Source of the DNA: a phage
DNA length: 64,000 bases
NCBI GenBank assembly: GCA_033286805.1
Contig: GCA_033286805.1_4727.1
Reading direction: 5' to 3' (one strand)
Made by a program: the position numbers and the translations under genes. Of this stretch, positions 15,266 through 59,786 are shown one piece after another (the first letter of the stretch is position 1; each line of letters begins with the position of its first letter). Under the pieces are notes generated by a model. The model saw only the letters and a list, made by a program, of their open reading frames with translations. It did not search any database and had not been told where the DNA came from.

Positions 15266-15415
15266 CGTCAACCTCCATCTGATTGAAAACTATCACGCAT
15301 AATACATTTCCCTTTTCTTGTTCTTATCAAGCCGACAGCCGACGGTTTCAGCATCGTTCCTAGCGCGAGAACGACCTTACGTGTTGTCTATGCCTTATTC
15401 ATCGAAGGCGTCTGT

Positions 15416-15473
15416 CACCTAGGTAATGTAAGCGTCAAATTTTTTCTATTCGCAACGATAAACGGCATAGAAA
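15416..15473 (-). promoter_or_regulatory. conserved roughly 60-nt intergenic element, copy 1 (CACCTAGGTAATGTA ... GCATAGAAACC), upstream of gene 13829..15265
   Basis: shares the CACCTAGGTAATGTA box and the CATAGAA box with copies at 21897 and 59195; sits immediately 3' (on the minus strand) of a GC-rich hairpin. Confidence 0.45.
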
Positions 15474-15502
15474 CCTCCCCCAACCCTTACGGGCTGAGGG
15501 AG
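15474..15502 (-). terminator. GC-rich hairpin downstream of the candidate capsid gene (CCTCCC...GGGAGG)
   Basis: inverted repeat with inner CCC-TTAC-GGG; lies between the capsid stop (15603) and the next promoter-like element. Confidence 0.5.
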
Positions 15503-15602
15503 GCTGACTTATGTATCACGGTGCCGGATGAATGTCCGGTGCAATGAAACCATCCGCAACGTTGTCGTCAAGAATATCATCCAACGAAGCAGCTACGGTA
15601 GT

Positions 15603-18634: not shown

Positions 18635-20245
18635 ATGGACCCAAAACAGATAGCCATTAAGATTATTACGTTACTGTTTCGTAATGCACAATTGAACCAT
18701 CCCGATCCCAGTACGATCGAACATGTTAAATCCGTCTTAGATAAAGTCGAACCCCCGAAAAACCATCTCGCTACAGACGTAGATAGAGAGGTTTTCAGCA
18801 ACCTGATGAACACCATTCATTGGATGCTGGAACAACCGTTATCGGAACCTTTCGATAAACAACAGTTGTTACAAAGGATACGTTTAGATTGCCTTGAACA
18901 AAGCAATCTTTACGAGATTCTTGCCGACGGACTGTACGATATCGAAGACGACGCTCATATCAGTAAGGTCTGTTCGCTCTATTACAACGAATTACGTAAT
19001 CTGATTACCCGTCGTCGTGTTTTCGAAACCTTTAGAAACACGTACATGGATATCAGTAACGGGCGACTTGGGGATAAAGAATTTTTCGATGCGATGGCGA
19101 ATCTGAAATTATCGCTAGACAGTATCGAAATGGATACCGAAAATCCCGAAGAGATGGCGTGTATGATTGACGGCTTTATCGCTGACAGCGAAGACGATAT
19201 CGAGAAAGTCGAACGTATGTTCGTCAAAGCGATGGAACGTAACAGTCCTGAAGGTGGATTTGTAACCGGCTGGCAAGGCTTTAATAAAATGTTGGGGTCG
19301 GTCGGTGTTTTACGTCGCGGTACCTTAGGACTGATTGGTGCAATGCAGCACCGGAACAAGTCAGGCGTGTTGTTAAAACTGTTCACACATCTGGCATTGT
19401 ACAACAAACCCCATTTCTTTTTCCCGGAGCGAGCAAAGAAAGCATTACTGATTCATTTGTCGACAGAAAACGAAGTGGAAGAAAACACGCTTCAGATATA
19501 CAAGAACATGCGAGAACAGGAAACAGGCGAATATGTCGATATTCGTAAGATTGACCCTCGCGAGGCATCACGTTATGTGTTGAAGGTGTTCAACGATGCG
19601 GGTTTCTCTGTTTGTATGCGTCGTGTTGATGGGATGAGTTACAAACAACTCGCTAATCTCATCGACCATTTCGAACGCATGGGTTATGAGGTCATGGCGT
19701 TGTTCATCGACTATCTGAAAATGTTCTCATCGGAAGGGCTGGATAGAAATGGACCGACCGGCGCATGGCTCCAAGAACTCTTTAACAAAGTCCGTAACCT
19801 CTGCAGCGTTAAACGTATTTTAGGTATGACCGTACACCAGCTGTCATCCGATGCGAAGATGCGTGCACGTGATGGCAACGATGAAGAGTTCGTTGACCAA
19901 GTCGCAGGTTTAAGTTACTGGGATGGTTGTAAAGGGATTGACCGTGAGATTGACCTCGAAGTGATTGTTGATATCGTTAAGGAACCGGGCAAACGTCAAA
20001 GCTGGCAGGTCTTTGCGTTAGGGAAAGACCGTCAACCGGATAACGGTTCAACGAAACCTGAAGACAAACATTTCGCGATGCCATTCCAAACCATCGGGAT
20101 GCTTCCTGATGATTACGGTAAGAAAGCAGTATATTGCCGCAAGGTTGGCGGACAACCTGTCTCCGAGGGAGGTAAAGGTCCGTGGAACAAGTTCGATGAA
20201 AACGCAGCACCGAGTAATGAATTACAATTTGATTTAGAATTTTAA
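18635..20245 (+). CDS. putative DnaB-like (SF4) replicative helicase with degenerate P-loop
   Basis: ORF track start 18551 is GTG and overlaps the divergent gene; ATG at 18635 has AAGGA RBS; motifs MALFIDYL (Walker B / H2-like), VHQLSSDAKMR (H3-like SQLNR), GAMQHRNKSG in the Walker A position. Confidence 0.45.
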   Translation: MDPKQIAIKIITLLFRNAQLNHPDPSTIEHVKSVLDKVEPPKNHLATDVDREVFSNLMNTIHWMLEQPLSEPFDKQQLLQRIRLDCLEQSNLYEILADGLYDIEDDAHISKVCSLYYNELRNLITRRRVFETFRNTYMDISNGRLGDKEFFDAMANLKLSLDSIEMDTENPEEMACMIDGFIADSEDDIEKVERMFVKAMERNSPEGGFVTGWQGFNKMLGSVGVLRRGTLGLIGAMQHRNKSGVLLKLFTHLALYNKPHFFFPERAKKALLIHLSTENEVEENTLQIYKNMREQETGEYVDIRKIDPREASRYVLKVFNDAGFSVCMRRVDGMSYKQLANLIDHFERMGYEVMALFIDYLKMFSSEGLDRNGPTGAWLQELFNKVRNLCSVKRILGMTVHQLSSDAKMRARDGNDEEFVDQVAGLSYWDGCKGIDREIDLEVIVDIVKEPGKRQSWQVFALGKDRQPDNGSTKPEDKHFAMPFQTIGMLPDDYGKKAVYCRKVGGQPVSEGGKGPWNKFDENAAPSNELQFDLEF

Positions 20246-20270
20246 ACGCAAAAAAAAAGATTGTGCGGTT

Positions 20271-20302
20271 CCCTCCTCCAACCCGTAAGGGAAGGAGGAG
20301 GG
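20271..20302. terminator. bidirectional GC-rich hairpin between convergent genes (CCCTCCTCC / AACCCGTAAGGGAA / GGAGGAGGG)
   Basis: perfect 9-bp stem; A9 run upstream on plus strand (T-run after the hairpin for the minus-strand transcript); GTTATGACC follows on plus strand. Confidence 0.6.
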
Positions 20303-20318
20303 GTTATGACCGCTTTGA

Positions 20319-20645
20319 TTAACTTATTGTCATGAATTCATTAGGTGAAAATTTCCAGCCGTTCTCAGTGAGAAGCGTGTTGAGTTTCGCTGCAACGATA
20401 AGCCACGCATGCATGGCTGTTACATCGTATTGGCGATTCACTCGACGTTGGTTTTCGATATTGATTTGCTCCTGTTCAGTGATGTTTGGATAAAGTGCGA
20501 TAGCGCTAGGTTTACCCAGCGCGCTAGTCATCACCGCCGTACATTCACTGATAATGTTGTTTAAGTGGTAGTTATACACCGTTCCACGCATGACGCGATG
20601 ACGGCATTCGATAATAGCGTCGTAAATGATTTCTCGAGTAATCAT
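20319..20645 (-). CDS. hypothetical protein (108 aa)
   Basis: ORF track; ATG; 6-nt gap from the upstream gene (operon). Confidence 0.5.
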   Translation of the reverse strand: MITREIIYDAIIECRHRVMRGTVYNYHLNNIISECTAVMTSALGKPSAIALYPNITEQEQINIENQRRVNRQYDVTAMHAWLIVAAKLNTLLTENGWKFSPNEFMTIS

Positions 20646-20651
20646 GATAAT

Positions 20652-21053
20652 TTAAAACATACGGTCGTTTTTAGCACGGGCGTTCATTACCAGATCGTAG
20701 ATGCCTGCGGTTCGTAAGCACTCTTCGTAGTAACGATGTGCGCCTTCATCAGCCATCCACGATAACCCACGGCTATCCGCAACAATAACCAGTTTGTTAT
20801 TGTTGAACGCACACACCACACGGTAGGTCGCGTTGTTATTCGGGTCGCGAGTGATAAGTTCGTAGACGCCGTTAACAGGTTTACTGAATTCGCCATTTAA
20901 CGGAACGAGTTCGGTAGTACCTTCAGCAAACGTTACGTTGATCGGTGATGGATCTTTAGCGATAACAGTATATTCCACATTGTGTTCTTTACTGGTCATA
21001 ATACCGAAGTAAGAACTGACAGGGGAACGTGGTACACTAAGAATATTAAACAT
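20652..21053 (-). CDS. hypothetical protein (133 aa)
   Basis: ORF track; AAGAGGA RBS. Confidence 0.55.
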   Translation of the reverse strand: MFNILSVPRSPVSSYFGIMTSKEHNVEYTVIAKDPSPINVTFAEGTTELVPLNGEFSKPVNGVYELITRDPNNNATYRVVCAFNNNKLVIVADSRGLSWMADEGAHRYYEECLRTAGIYDLVMNARAKNDRMF

Positions 21054-21123
21054 AGATGTTGTCCTCTTAATTGGATTTAGATTGTTGGGTGTGTAATTGA
21101 GAAATGAAAACGTTGTTTCGGTT

Positions 21124-21693
21124 TTAGACGATGAGTGACCAGGTGGTAAGCACCCCGCTTGCGAATTCGAGCTTAAGACGTTTACCGATAAGTTGTTGTT
21201 GGATCATCTTCTCAGTGATACGTCGATCTTGCTGAACCGCTTTATCAAACGCTTCTTTTGCTTCAGCTTGGTAGAAGTTCGTTTCTTCGTTTTCGTCGAT
21301 CTCTTCGAGAGCATCCTCGTCGATGTCAGCAAGTTTCACTCGACCGTTTTCATCAGGTTGTTCTGCAGGTTCATTGTCATACGGCGTGTCTTTTGTTGGT
21401 GCGACACGATGTTGCAACTCGACCTGTGTTAACATGATCTCCATCTCACCATCGATAGGAATGATTTCATCGGCGCTGCCGTTTTCGGTCAGCTCTCGAC
21501 TTTCCAGTAATGTCGTCGTAACAGAGAACACCTCTTCAACAGGAACCTCATCATCGTCGATGGTGTTAACCGTGTTGCTGGTAACTTCGGCAACAACCAT
21601 CAAATCAAATGCGTGAGGGTCACCTGGCATTTTGATGCCTGGAAGTTTGTTGAGGTACCAAGGATCAAGAATCATGATTTCTGGATTAAACAT
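21124..21693 (-). CDS. hypothetical highly acidic protein (189 aa)
   Basis: ORF track; D/E about 24% of residues with few K/R; first gene downstream of a conserved promoter-like element. Confidence 0.6.
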   Translation of the reverse strand: MFNPEIMILDPWYLNKLPGIKMPGDPHAFDLMVVAEVTSNTVNTIDDDEVPVEEVFSVTTTLLESRELTENGSADEIIPIDGEMEIMLTQVELQHRVAPTKDTPYDNEPAEQPDENGRVKLADIDEDALEEIDENEETNFYQAEAKEAFDKAVQQDRRITEKMIQQQLIGKRLKLEFASGVLTTWSLIV

Positions 21694-21875
21694 CGTATTT
21701 TACCTTTCTATGTTAGGTGGATTGCGGATAGAAGAATCAATGCATAGATTGATCGTTCTATGTTAGAAATTATTGCCGAACTGGTTATGGTTATAACGCG
21801 TGTTTTCGTATGCTGACGGGTCGCGTATTAATAAGGTCATGACTGTATCCTCGATTATTAAGAGAAATTTACAAC

Positions 21876-21955
21876 GATAACAGTAACCGCTGTTATCACC
21901 TAGGTAATGTAGTCGCGAAATAAACTGGAGTAATGCGAAATAAGACAGCATAGAA
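21876..21955 (-). promoter_or_regulatory. conserved roughly 60-nt intergenic element, copy 2, with abutting 8-bp palindrome GATAACAG-N6-CTGTTATC
   Basis: near-identical to the copy at 59174..59253 (CACCTAGGTAATGTAGTCGCGAAATAAACTG...CGAAATAAGACAGCATAGAACC). Confidence 0.5.
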
Positions 21956-21987
21956 CCCTCTCCCAACCCAGCAGGGAAGGGAGAGGG
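21956..21987 (-). terminator. GC-rich hairpin (CCCTCTCCC / AACCCAGCAGGGAA / GGGAGAGGG)
   Basis: perfect 9-bp stem immediately after the stop of gene 21994..22626; followed on the minus strand by TTCTATGCTGTCTTATTTCG. Confidence 0.55.
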
Positions 21988-21993
21988 AATATA

Positions 21994-22626
21994 TCACCAA
22001 TGATCGAAGGAACCAGGAGTGTTACGAACGATCTCAACTTGGAAGGTTATTGGTACTGATGGCAATGAAACATATTCGCGTTGCGATAGCAGGACGTTGT
22101 CTTCTCGCTCATCGATGCGAGTAGAACCCGTCAGAAATTGGAACATAGCGACTTGAAGCTCATCGGTGAAACGGAGGTACTCACCGATGTGTGGTGTTGC
22201 ATCATATCGAATAAGTACGTTGCCAAACCGTCGTGCGATATTTGGAGTATCTGTGAACGAAACAGGGAAATCCAAAGTCATTCCCATCGTTTCACCTGGC
22301 TTCATTTTCCGAATCGACGCAATTGGCGCGTCGAAGATATTCCATTCTTCTTTCATCGTGTCTGGAAACACACCGCGATACAAGATGGTCTTTTGATGAC
22401 GATGAACGGGTTGTAAACGGTCAACCAATATTTTCAAAGGTTTAAGTTCTTCAGCCAATTCATAATCTGCTTGGATGTTCCACTTTGCCGCAAGTTCCAT
22501 TAGGTTGGGATACGCGCTATATTTATTGACGATAGCCCAGTTAACATTACGCAAATCGATAGGAAGGAATTTGATAATTTCCTTGTTGAATATCCATTGG
22601 TTTAATTTCTTAATCTTCGAAAGCAT
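21994..22626 (-). CDS. hypothetical protein (about 210 aa)
   Basis: ORF track 21994..22815 would overlap the upstream gene by 170 nt; internal ATG at 22626 lies 16 nt after the upstream stop; start uncertain. Confidence 0.5.
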   Translation of the reverse strand: MLSKIKKLNQWIFNKEIIKFLPIDLRNVNWAIVNKYSAYPNLMELAAKWNIQADYELAEELKPLKILVDRLQPVHRHQKTILYRGVFPDTMKEEWNIFDAPIASIRKMKPGETMGMTLDFPVSFTDTPNIARRFGNVLIRYDATPHIGEYLRFTDELQVAMFQFLTGSTRIDEREDNVLLSQREYVSLPSVPITFQVEIVRNTPGSFDHW

Positions 22627-22642
22627 GATGTACTCACTACAG

Positions 22643-24010
22643 CTAAACGGTTGGACGAACGGTGTTGTCTTTTTCTGGTGCAAGCCATAACGTGACCGTA
22701 CCATGACATGTCCACTGTGGCTCACGTACAGAAGAACCTGCCATCGTAACAGCACAATCGGTACGCATGATAACCCCGTATGCTTCGCAGAGATTGTTAT
22801 CCTGCATCCACACAACTTTAGCAGGCATGCCGGGATACAACAAATCCATGTTTGCGTATTCCCACACCAACTGCATTGTTCTACCGCGTAATCCAGCAGT
22901 ATTGCTTAATTCACGCCATCGGTTATCGGTTACGCGTCCCATCCCTTTCGCCACCTTCACGTTATCGCTACGTTCTTCAGTTACGTACTCGCTAACGTTT
23001 ACGGTACGACTGATTATCGTATCACCCCCTTTTGATAATGTCATTCCCTGACTCATCTGACTTGCCGAAACAAAACGCCCGCCCGCATTACCTAACAACG
23101 AAGCCGCGTTATTGATGTCGCTTACCGACGCCCCTCTCGTACAGGCAATTTCCACGTATTTGTCACGATTGATCCAGGTCTTGTCCATGCCCGGAAACAT
23201 ATCGGCAGGATAGTTGTAAAAGATAGCCGTGCGCCGACCGTCAGAGAAACGGGTTTCGTCATAGAGAGGATAAATATACAGATACGGAGATTGGTAATAA
23301 CAACCGACATCCGCTGAATAAATACCGACCTGGTTCTGGATTTTGTCTACGAGATCCATTGCGTTGGTACCGTGCGGAAGAATAAGCAACTTGAACAGGT
23401 TGTCGTTATTCGGTGCAACAATATCCACACCCTGCATTTTGAATCCGGTGTCGGCTTCAACCGCAGAAAGTATTTTGCTGAATTCGAGCCGTAACACATC
23501 CAGAACTTTCGACCCGGTATAGTTTTCACCGGTTTCTGATTGCATGAAGCTTTCAAGAACAGGATCGAACAGTTGAAATTGAAGATCGACCATTTGCTCG
23601 TAGTCTTTCTTCGAAGAATCGGTTGCGGTACGTTCGTCGGTAGCAGACATACGACTGTCTACGGTTGTTAAACAAACCGCTCGGTAGACGTAAGCTTGTG
23701 CGGCATCGTCTACGGTTTGGCGTTGTCCGCGCATCAGGCTGTACGCCTGCACGATGATGCGCATTTTAAGTTGTTGTTGGTATGGTAGAATGTATTTTCC
23801 GTAACTGCCCGGTGGGAACTTTACAGAAATATAAAGTTCATCCCCTGCGTTACGTTCATAGTCTCGATACGTGTGGACTTGAGTCACTAAAGGAACAGAC
23901 ACCGTCATTGACGGCGTGATTAATTCCGCGGTGACTTTATACGCAACAGCAACTGCTTCCTGCGCAAATGTACCGATATACCGTCCTAACGGCGTCTGTT
24001 TGTAATCCAT
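22643..24010 (-). CDS. hypothetical virion-module protein (455 aa)
   Basis: ORF track; part of a tightly packed or overlapping minus-strand operon 21994..27859. Confidence 0.65.
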   Translation of the reverse strand: MDYKQTPLGRYIGTFAQEAVAVAYKVTAELITPSMTVSVPLVTQVHTYRDYERNAGDELYISVKFPPGSYGKYILPYQQQLKMRIIVQAYSLMRGQRQTVDDAAQAYVYRAVCLTTVDSRMSATDERTATDSSKKDYEQMVDLQFQLFDPVLESFMQSETGENYTGSKVLDVLRLEFSKILSAVEADTGFKMQGVDIVAPNNDNLFKLLILPHGTNAMDLVDKIQNQVGIYSADVGCYYQSPYLYIYPLYDETRFSDGRRTAIFYNYPADMFPGMDKTWINRDKYVEIACTRGASVSDINNAASLLGNAGGRFVSASQMSQGMTLSKGGDTIISRTVNVSEYVTEERSDNVKVAKGMGRVTDNRWRELSNTAGLRGRTMQLVWEYANMDLLYPGMPAKVVWMQDNNLCEAYGVIMRTDCAVTMAGSSVREPQWTCHGTVTLWLAPEKDNTVRPTV

Positions 24011-27859: not shown

Positions 27860-27910
27860 CGCAGATTCCTGTTTGAAAGATAAGATATCACATGATGGTC
27901 GACAGCATAA

Positions 27911-27932
27911 AGCCCACCCCGAAGGGCGGGCT
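27911..27932 (-). terminator. GC-rich hairpin (AGCCCACCC / CGAA / GGGCGGGCT) after the 1128-aa gene
   Basis: imperfect 9-bp stem with CGAA loop; followed on the minus strand by TTATGCTGTC. Confidence 0.5.
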
Positions 27933-36506: not shown

Positions 36507-36554
36507 GTGTTGTCTCCAGTAATGATTCAAAAGATAAACCTGAGCGGCATAGAA

Positions 36555-36586
36555 CCCTCTCCCAACCCGTCAGGGAAGGGAGAGGG
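36555..36586 (-). terminator. GC-rich hairpin (CCCTCTCCC / AACCCGTCAGGGAA / GGGAGAGGG)
   Basis: perfect 9-bp stem immediately after the stop of the highly biased 440-aa gene; TATG on both flanks. Confidence 0.6.
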
Positions 36587-59173: not shown

Positions 59174-59253
59174 GATAAGATATTTTGCTCTTATCACTAA
59201 GGTAATGTAGTCGCGAAATAAACTGCGTTAAAACGAAATAAAACAGCATAGAA
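59174..59253 (-). promoter_or_regulatory. conserved roughly 60-nt intergenic element, copy 3, with abutting 7-bp palindrome GATAAGA-N8-TCTTATC
   Basis: near-identical to copy 2 (CACTAAGGTAATGTAGTCGCGAAATAAACTG...CGAAATAAAACAGCATAGAAACC); 68 nt upstream of the ATG at 59126. Confidence 0.5.
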
Positions 59254-59296
59254 ACCTCCTCCCCCATCCTTCAAGAGGACGGTGGGAAGAGGGAGA
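59254..59296 (-). terminator. GC-rich variant hairpin after gene 59299..59700
   Basis: CCTCCTCCCCC...GGGAAGAGGGAGAG imperfect inverted repeat with inner TCCT-TCAA-GAGGA. Confidence 0.4.
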
Positions 59297-59298
59297 GA

Positions 59299-59700
59299 TT
59301 AAATGTCGTGGACGGCAATGCCGTTTAACCAGCAATACAGCTTAACGCGACAGGAATACCGCTTCGTTGCGGCAACCATTTCATCGCGTAAACGCTGGTA
59401 GATTTCATCCTGGTGTTCACGATCAATGGGGTAATCAGCCCAACATTCGATCATGACGTCACCATTCGTCAGAATCGTCGTACGCATCCTGTCCTGGATA
59501 CGGCGGTCTTTCCCGGCATTAGGGAAATACATTCCTTCAGTACGAATAAGGTCGCCGCAGGGCATGACTAACCATTCGTTCGTTTTGCCGGTATTCTTAT
59601 AATCCATTACAGCTTGCATTGCGGTGTCAACGCTAAAAGAAACATAATTCCAAACGGATGTCCAACGATAGATTGCGGGTTGTTCGAGTGTTTCGTTCAT
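59299..59700 (-). CDS. hypothetical protein (133 aa)
   Basis: ORF track; ATG start. Confidence 0.55.
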   Translation of the reverse strand: MNETLEQPAIYRWTSVWNYVSFSVDTAMQAVMDYKNTGKTNEWLVMPCGDLIRTEGMYFPNAGKDRRIQDRMRTTILTNGDVMIECWADYPIDREHQDEIYQRLRDEMVAATKRYSCRVKLYCWLNGIAVHDI

Positions 59701-59754
59701 GGAGTGCTTGTCCTATTTTTATTTTCTGCACAGGATAAATTCAACGGCATAAAG

Positions 59755-59786
59755 CCCTTCCCTGCCCTTATATGGGGCGGGAAGAG
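59755..59786 (-). terminator. GC-rich hairpin (CCCTTCCCTGCCC / TTATAT / GGGGCGGGAAG)
   Basis: imperfect inverted repeat in a 214-bp non-coding gap; GTTTATGACC follows on the plus strand. Confidence 0.4.

Follow-up and report, generated by a model that had tools for sequence, protein, structure and literature searches.

The window analyzed here, a 64,000-nt stretch of phage DNA (NCBI GenBank assembly GCA_033286805.1, contig GCA_033286805.1_4727.1), encodes a homolog of gp046, a hyper-acidic protein of Escherichia phage vB_EcoM_Goslar. gp046 is an early, non-packaged and clade-restricted protein, which is selected for extreme negative charge and is co-transcribed with two partners, gp045 and gp044. 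The favored interpretation, to which a probability of roughly 40% is assigned, is that gp046 acts as an early polyanionic decoy (a nucleic acid mimic) and is a non-structural accessory protein of the Goslar-like phages.

A Hyper-Acidic Gene of Goslar-Like Phages

Goslar (NC_048170), a jumbo phage that forms a nucleus, belongs to the Chimalliviridae. Its genome is 97.4% identical to window positions 19000–24000, and the two sequences are colinear here with the sole exception of a 651-bp insertion at window 21993–22643. The ORF at 21124–21693 on the minus strand, with its ATG at 21693 and its TAA at 21124–21126, encodes 189 amino acids exactly where an earlier note on this DNA had placed such a protein, and it is the counterpart of Goslar gp046, with which it shares 98.4% amino acid identity. 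Goslar gp046 is already annotated as "hypothetical protein"; a search of the literature on Goslar, jumbo-phage DNA mimics, and genome-wide Goslar knockdowns returned nothing specific to it, and no published function was found.

The window homolog (21.5 kDa, pI 4.12) contains 42 acidic residues (25 Glu and 17 Asp; 22.2%) and 15 basic residues (9 Lys and 6 Arg), plus 2 His, for a net charge of −27. The scarcity of basic residues that the earlier note had described is accordingly real, whereas the acidic fraction falls slightly short of the quarter it had given, and its estimate of a net charge near −30 was slightly generous, if essentially right. Among the 75 window ORFs of at least 100 amino acids this ORF ranks first in acidity, at −0.143 charges per residue vs. 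−0.083 for the runner-up. An AAAGG Shine-Dalgarno sequence lies 9 nt 5′ of the start codon, which aligns with those of the homologs. Between the window homolog and Goslar gp046 there are 8 synonymous and 3 non-synonymous differences (pN/pS ~0.1), and, as judged from this ratio, gp046 is under purifying selection.

Conservation of Charge in a Small Protein Family

A Pfam-A search (hmmscan, E ≤ 1) returned 0 families for gp046, and Pfam, PHROGs and PADLOC scans of gp046, gp045, gp044, and the ORF within the 651-bp insertion gave 0 significant matches. By tblastn against 50,697 phage records, Goslar was the only match. An exhaustive HMMER search of 1.84 billion cluster representatives yielded 4 matches for gp046, including a near-identical protein and two distant relatives that are genuine and full length; P0003 was rejected as a relative, being a low-complexity repeat protein. 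Together with word-indexed protein searches, this recovered only ~20 close-clade relatives. A degenerate-pattern scan of viral contigs produced 600 pattern matches, of which 0 were confirmed, and a search of complete E. coli genomes and plasmids for the gp046 locus found no match. Profile searches delimit the family as ~20 proteins of 189–197 amino acids in three lineages, and every one of them is encoded on a jumbo-phage contig, the longest of 259 kb. Judging from these searches, the gp046 family is tiny and confined to Goslar-like jumbo phages.

Identity between the lineages is 24–29%, or about 27% (25–30% for the window protein and its full-length homologs on other jumbo-phage contigs), with Gly170, Leu175, Glu176, Phe177, Gly180, and Leu182 invariant in the family alignment. 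A net charge of −27 to −44 is nonetheless found in 20 of 20 members. The N-terminal domain contributes −16 to −19 of this, and a central segment of 28–46 amino acids, 38–47% of which are Asp or Glu, contributes −11 to −20. Since the charge is constant at such low identity, while the neighboring proteins keep 37–44%, selection appears to hold the charge of gp046 rather than its sequence.

Predicted Structure of gp046

An AlphaFold2 (AF2) model from the single gp046 sequence was useless (pLDDT 40), whereas a 20-sequence alignment, shallow and drawn from three lineages, gave a model of moderate confidence (pLDDT 73.6, pTM 0.61). According to this model, gp046 has three parts. Codons 1–98 (21400–21693, minus strand) would form a beta-rich N-terminal domain with a net charge of −16, with strands at residues 5–8, 29–40, 60–62, 67–70, and 80–95 and a pLDDT mostly of 76–93. 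Codons 99–134 (21292–21399, minus strand; PTKDTPYDNEPAEQPDENGRVKLADIDEDALEEIDE) correspond to a polyacidic loop that varies in length across the family and is predicted to be disordered (pLDDT <50); its ~36 residues carry a net charge of −11 and are the densest acidic stretch of the protein. For codons 135–189 (21127–21291, minus strand), AF2 secondary structure and the family alignment indicate a long helix (136–168) followed by a C-terminal beta-hairpin (172–188), which contains the best-conserved motif of the family, G-x-[KR]-[LM]-x-L-E-F-x-x-G-[VI]-L. The protein is thus predicted to be predominantly beta, with no helical rod. A profile search of the PDB gave a single chance match (E-value 0.24), and a fold search found no structural relative, Ocr and ArdA included.

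The lack of any family annotation could suggest that the ORF is a chance or mis-annotated frame, whose acidity is a compositional accident. This reading is already refuted by the pattern of conservation, and its likelihood is practically nil: full-length homologs with conserved termini occur in three lineages, the pN/pS ratio is 0.1, a Shine-Dalgarno sequence precedes a conserved start, the region is transcribed, and the AF2 pLDDT exceeds 80 over most of the folded parts. On the basis of its homologs, its pN/pS, its ribosome-binding site and aligned start, and a transcript in published RNA-seq data, gp046 is a real gene.

Expression Timing and Absence from Virions

Supplementary Table 2 of Armbruster et al. 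(10.1101/2023.09.20.558163) compares Goslar transcript levels at 30 min between infections with knockdown of the nucleus protein ChmA and infections without it. The ChmA-knockdown transcriptome corresponds to the early (5–20 min) transcriptome that is made in the early-infection vesicle, and the values in the table are sharply bimodal (10.1101/2023.09.20.558163). Upon knockdown, gp044, gp045, gp046, and gp047 change by log2 +0.7 to +1.3 (gp046, +1.1), as do picA and chmC, which respond like them, whereas the flanking genes gp041–043 and gp048–069 fall by log2 −2.5 to −8 (gp041, −4.0 to −4.4; gp042, −4.5 to −4.8; gp048, −3.2) (10.1101/2023.09.20.558163). These bimodal values identify gp046 as an early, nucleus-independent gene situated among late structural genes. 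In the same table, the DnaB-like helicase gene gp043 (window ~18635–20245, plus strand) and the DNA polymerase gene gp068 belong to the ChmA-dependent "late" class (log2 −3.7 to −5.5), and the "polymerase" gene gp039, along with gp038–040 as a group, belongs to the early class.

LC-MS/MS of purified Goslar virions lists proteins down to ~2 copies per particle (Table S4 of 10.64898/2026.04.21.720040). Missing from that table are gp046, gp044, and gp047, while gp045 is listed at ~6 copies and gp049 at ~2.6 (10.64898/2026.04.21.720040). Digestion in silico predicts six tryptic peptides of 9–30 amino acids for gp046, and its absence is therefore meaningful; presence in virions, which the earlier note had named as a finding that would refute a mimic, is not what the published data report. 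The gp045 signal probably reflects carry-over of an abundant early protein rather than a structural role, as its copy level is that of the obvious contaminants dTMP kinase and DNA ligase (~4–6 copies; 10.64898/2026.04.21.720040).

Neighboring Genes and the Variable Island

Downstream of gp046, and of the same early class, is the gp045 homolog (20652–21053, minus strand; 133 amino acids, net charge −2), followed by the gp044 homolog (20319–20645, minus strand; 108 amino acids, net charge 0), the last gene of the unit, which runs convergently toward the helicase gene. In each of the three lineages, the three genes follow one another closely and in constant order, and the gp045 homologs share 37–44% and the gp044 homologs 39–41% identity; no family or PDB match was found for either. 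At ~27% vs. ~40% identity, gp046 is the fastest-diverging member of this conserved three-gene unit. The N-termini of gp046 and gp045 look alike, and the two were considered as paralogs, a relationship rejected on an hhalign probability of 0.4%.

According to a cryo-EM preprint, the surrounding genes encode virion proteins, namely the baseplate spike cap (gp048), the tail adaptor (gp050), the tail terminator (gp051), and two capsid proteins (gp041 and gp042) (10.64898/2026.04.21.720040). gp046 thus falls between gp048, for the spike cap, and gp041, which encodes the major capsid protein (MCP). In phages RAY and PhiPA3, the interval from the spike-cap homolog to the helicase/MCP genes is taken up by small, unrelated accessory genes, which marks it as a variable island within the core block (PMC10299810). 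The core genome of the Chimalliviridae comprises 72 genes that are present in >95% of chimallin-encoding phages (Prichard et al., 2023; PMC10299810), and gp046 is outside it, given its tblastn matches to Goslar only. A spike-cap homolog was found in 290 phage records, as compared with Goslar and a handful of Goslar-like metagenomic contigs for gp046.

Further genes occupy this region. The insertion at 21993–22643 carries an ORF of ~210 amino acids (21994–22626, minus strand) downstream of the spike-cap gene, with no Pfam or PDB match; its only relatives, at 24–30% identity, are hypothetical proteins of three other jumbo phages, Erwinia phage pEa_SNUABM_54, Shewanella phage SXP01, and Klebsiella phage Eowyn. 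In metagenomic relatives, other extra genes (468, 446, and 103 amino acids) follow the motif located after the spike-cap gene, and this variety of inserted genes makes the post-spike-cap junction an insertion hot spot. In the larger metagenomic lineage, the 103-amino-acid gene directly precedes the gp046 homolog (L002 9655–9966; L014 9659–9970). Its product has a signal-peptide-like N-terminus, MRAVAFILAALLSSTAYA, and the gene is absent from Goslar and from the window.

The Promoter-Like Element and Leader Upstream of gp046

Between gp048 and gp046, the minus strand carries, in order, a GC-rich hairpin, a TTCTATGC box, a 25-nt motif, and a palindrome. The earlier note had described the second copy of a conserved element with its palindrome at this site, and both are real. 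The early-promoter-like motif, TTTCGCGACTACATTACCTAGGTGA (TTTCRCGRCTAYATTACYTWRGTGA), occupies 21896–21920 (minus strand), and its extended consensus is TTTCRCGRCT-AYATTACYT-WRGTGA. Directly 3′ of it, and overlapping its end, is the palindrome GATAACAG-CGGTTA-CTGTTATC (21876–21897, minus strand; folding energy −9.3 kcal/mol, z −3.1). Sister elements are present in the window at ~59194–59300 and 15415–15520, before the gp075 and gp040 homologs, and their copies of the motif are at 59194–59218 and 15415–15438, also on the minus strand. For a 26-mer from the element, with up to 3 mismatches allowed, there were 2 matches vs. 0.00 expected. The palindrome before gp075 is retained despite changed bases (GATAAGA...TCTTATC).

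A scan for the motif core over positions 1–125 kb of Goslar placed 6 of 7 matches 23–203 nt upstream of the first genes of early blocks, namely gp004, gp021, gp040, gp046, gp075, and gp105 (motif at 2552, 15052, 43251, 49717, 86690, and 113782); the seventh, which has three mismatches and lies inside a gene, looks like a chance match. The 16-nt core also follows the spike-cap gene, without a mismatch, in distant metagenomic relatives, and the motif was located at L002 6720, L005 6719, L013 1020, and L014 8174. One metagenomic lineage has the motif upstream of the gp046 homolog itself, at a distance of 60 nt. The motif is better conserved than the proteins encoded behind it (~27–40% identical). 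In Goslar 1–125 kb it stands before each early block that was examined. From its distribution, the 25-nt motif is likely an early promoter, presumably used by the virion RNA polymerase; a literature search found no paper describing it.

The hairpin (21956–21987, minus strand; −26.6 kcal/mol, z −5.2) probably terminates the late unit upstream, and it is joined to a TATG-type box. This box, GGGTTCTATGC (21948–21958, minus strand), follows the pattern GGKYTHTATGC, which occurs six times in the window, always on the minus strand (15465–15475, 21948–21958, 27905–27915, 36547–36557, 59246–59256, and 59747–59757), vs. 0.19 expected. A hairpin with a T[CT]TATGC box precedes the early genes gp040, gp047/046, and gp075 as well as the late genes gp052, gp057, and gp076. 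Because of the latter, the combination was dropped as a candidate promoter of gp046, and it is the 25-nt motif, not the TATGC box, that is the early-specific feature. The hairpin and TATGC box are reminiscent of phiKZ late promoters.

A leader of ~200 nt (21694–21895, minus strand) extends from the motif to the gp046 start codon. The earlier note had called gp046 the first gene after the element, which is correct for the first substantive gene, although an annotated 62-amino-acid ORF, "gp047" (21763–21951, minus strand), intervenes and lies for the most part within the leader. "gp047" takes its start codon from the TATG box and crosses both the motif and the palindrome; in the element before gp040 the DNA is kept and this reading frame is lost, and RNA-seq coverage per nt of "gp047" is about half that of gp046. 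"gp047" is therefore probably leader and no gene. The leader also contains a possible uORF of 25 amino acids (21763–21840, minus strand; MTLLIRDPSAYENTRYNHNQFGNNF) with a strong Shine-Dalgarno sequence, GAGGA. Two copies of CTAACATAGAA, 50 nt apart (21706–21766, minus strand), lie a short way upstream of the ribosome-binding site of gp046 and flank an imperfect palindrome, ATAGAAGAATCAAT / ATTGATCGTTCTAT, that contains ATGCAT. The repeats are marginally significant (3 matches vs. 0.9 expected), and together with the palindrome they may represent an operator or a translational control site. An Rfam search of the leader returned no family.

Comparison with Known Acidic Phage Proteins

Many small, hyper-acidic, early phage proteins are proven DNA mimics, among them T7 Ocr and gp5.9, T4 Arn, lambda Gam, SPO1 Gp46, and Ugi, and each of these acidic mimics has its own idiosyncratic fold. 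A protein without homology, such as gp046, is therefore normal for the class. Proteins of this kind are smaller than ~25 kDa, have a pI of 3–5, are rich in Asp and Glu and poor in Lys and Arg, are expressed early, and are not virion structural proteins, and gp046 was found to have each of these properties.

T7 Ocr (gp0.3) is the archetypal DNA-mimic anti-restriction and anti-BREX protein. Like gp046, it is small, early, accessory, and non-virion, with a pI of ~4 and a net charge near −28 per monomer. On the other hand, Ocr forms a rigid, entirely helical dimer with carboxylates that follow the course of bent B-DNA, whereas the model of gp046 is rich in beta structure and has a disordered acidic loop, and T7 DNA is exposed on entry, whereas that of Goslar-like phages is enclosed. 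No match of gp046 to the Ocr family was found in Pfam or, by sequence or fold, in the PDB. The same searches found no match to the ArdA family, whose three-domain elongated fold is not seen in the gp046 model. ArdA, Arn, lambda Gam, T7 gp5.9, and SPO1 Gp46 inhibit type I restriction-modification, McrBC and H-NS, RecBCD, or HU. They resemble gp046 in being small, hyper-acidic, and expressed early or from a leading region; no sequence or structural similarity to gp046 was found for any of them.

Two proteins of other jumbo phages may also be compared. Dip (gp37) of phiKZ inhibits RNase E and the degradosome by means of acidic surface patches that block the RNA-binding sites, and, like gp046, it is an accessory protein that a nucleus-forming jumbo phage makes early. 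Since mRNA is the only nucleic acid that such a phage exposes, an RNA-binding host enzyme would be a logical type of target. gp309 of Erwinia phage RAY (131 amino acids, net charge −21; L008 11859–12254) is hyper-acidic and located in the same variable island as gp046, but has no detectable sequence similarity to it, and is a positional and compositional analog only. On present comparisons, gp046 is best classed as a structurally unprecedented candidate of a known functional kind, the nucleic acid mimics.

gp046 as a Candidate Decoy, and Alternatives

In the mechanism proposed for the decoy, the genome would first be injected into the early-infection vesicle, where the virion RNA polymerase would transcribe gp046-gp045-gp044 from the motif at 21896–21920. 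The mRNA would be translated in the cytoplasm, and gp046 would accumulate there, unpackaged. Its acidic beta domain (−16) and flexible loop (−11) could then cover the surface with which a host protein binds DNA or RNA, and so neutralize that protein; candidates may include a restriction or BREX-type complex, RecBCD, a nucleoid protein such as H-NS or HU, and RNase E. Consistent with a decoy are the size and charge of gp046 (21.5 kDa, pI 4.1, −27), which fit the mimic class; the conservation of extreme acidity in a family that diverges fast; and the early class, absence from virions, position in a variable island, and clade restriction of the gene. Counting against it, no sequence or fold match to any known mimic was found, and the model on which its structure is judged is moderately confident and drawn from a shallow alignment. 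In that model the folded N-terminal domain has a net charge of −16, and disorder is predicted for the densest acidic segment (residues 99–134), in contrast to Ocr and ArdA with their rigid arrays. Acidity alone is a criterion of low specificity, and tight conservation with gp045 and gp044 could mean a different, three-protein function. The DNA-mimic proposal of the earlier note thus gains from the early expression, lack of packaging, island position, and conserved acidity of gp046, and loses from the missing homology or fold and the disorder of the acidic stretch.

The DNA of chimalliviruses is enclosed throughout infection, at first in a vesicle and then in a protein nucleus. With the DNA shielded in this way, an anti-restriction role is less obviously needed, and the target of a gp046 decoy could instead be an RNA-binding or a nucleoid protein. 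A more specific version, which is considered rather improbable, is that gp046, possibly with gp045 and gp044, is a cytoplasmic RNA or DNA mimic of the vesicle stage, which would neutralize a factor that attacks exported mRNA or that senses nucleic acid at the vesicle surface.

The same physical shielding of the DNA is also in keeping with a function without mimicry, in which gp046-gp045-gp044 would be a phage-specific early module that serves the phage's own program, such as vesicle handling in early infection, establishment of the nucleus, or import and export; the acidic loop might then be a flexible spacer, a solubility element, or a site for a basic phage partner or for cations. This main rival, which is doubtful but deserves weight, draws on the synteny of the three tightly spaced genes in every lineage, on the early class that all three share with known nucleus-establishment genes, and on the failure of PADLOC, Pfam, and PHROGs to yield an anti-defense family match. 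The module is absent from all other chimalliviruses, however, which rules it out as a component of the conserved machinery of nucleus or vesicle. Moreover, gp045 (−2) and gp044 (0) are near neutral and are no obvious charge partners for gp046, and the faster divergence of gp046 (~27% vs. ~40%) better fits a protein at the interface with the host.

The earlier note had also allowed for a scaffold or propeptide-like protein, and gp046 could in principle be such a protein, or an assembly chaperone, for head or tail morphogenesis. Like gp046, the scaffolding and core proteins T4 gp22, P22 gp8, and lambda gpG are acidic, and phage scaffolds are missing from mature virions and encoded near capsid genes; gp046 lies between the spike-cap and major capsid genes and has a long predicted helix. 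However, phage scaffolds are late, helical, and conserved with the capsid, whereas gp046 is early, mostly beta with no helical rod, and found in one clade only, not in other chimalliviruses with the same capsid and tail. The structural genes around it drop by log2 −2.5 to −8 in the ChmA knockdown, and a strong terminator hairpin, followed by an early-promoter motif of its own, separates gp046 from the late unit. Early expression, together with absence from virions, strongly disfavors this alternative, which is very unlikely. A histone-chaperone-like role, in which gp046 would strip basic injected proteins off the DNA, was rejected, since the injected proteins are mostly acidic: this holds for 5 of the 6 injected PF12699 proteins (gp053–058), the abundant gp058 among them.

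Significance for Nucleus-Forming Phages

Among nucleus-forming phages, Goslar serves as the E. coli model, and ~58% of its genes are expressed early and have no known function. The results on gp046 overturn no expectations; they turn an unannotated ORF of this tractable phage into a defined, testable anti-host candidate with two conserved partner genes. The 25-nt motif in turn provides a handle for predicting early, presumably virion-polymerase-dependent, units in Goslar-like phages. Were the cytoplasmic version of mimicry to hold, gp046 would combine a new fold with a mode of mimicry that is in part disordered, a "polyanion on a scaffold," and would point to an unrecognized enterobacterial defense, or a vulnerability in RNA decay, that is specific to jumbo phages. 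If gp046 is indeed a decoy, its target would reveal a host nucleic acid-binding factor that still threatens a phage whose DNA is hidden.
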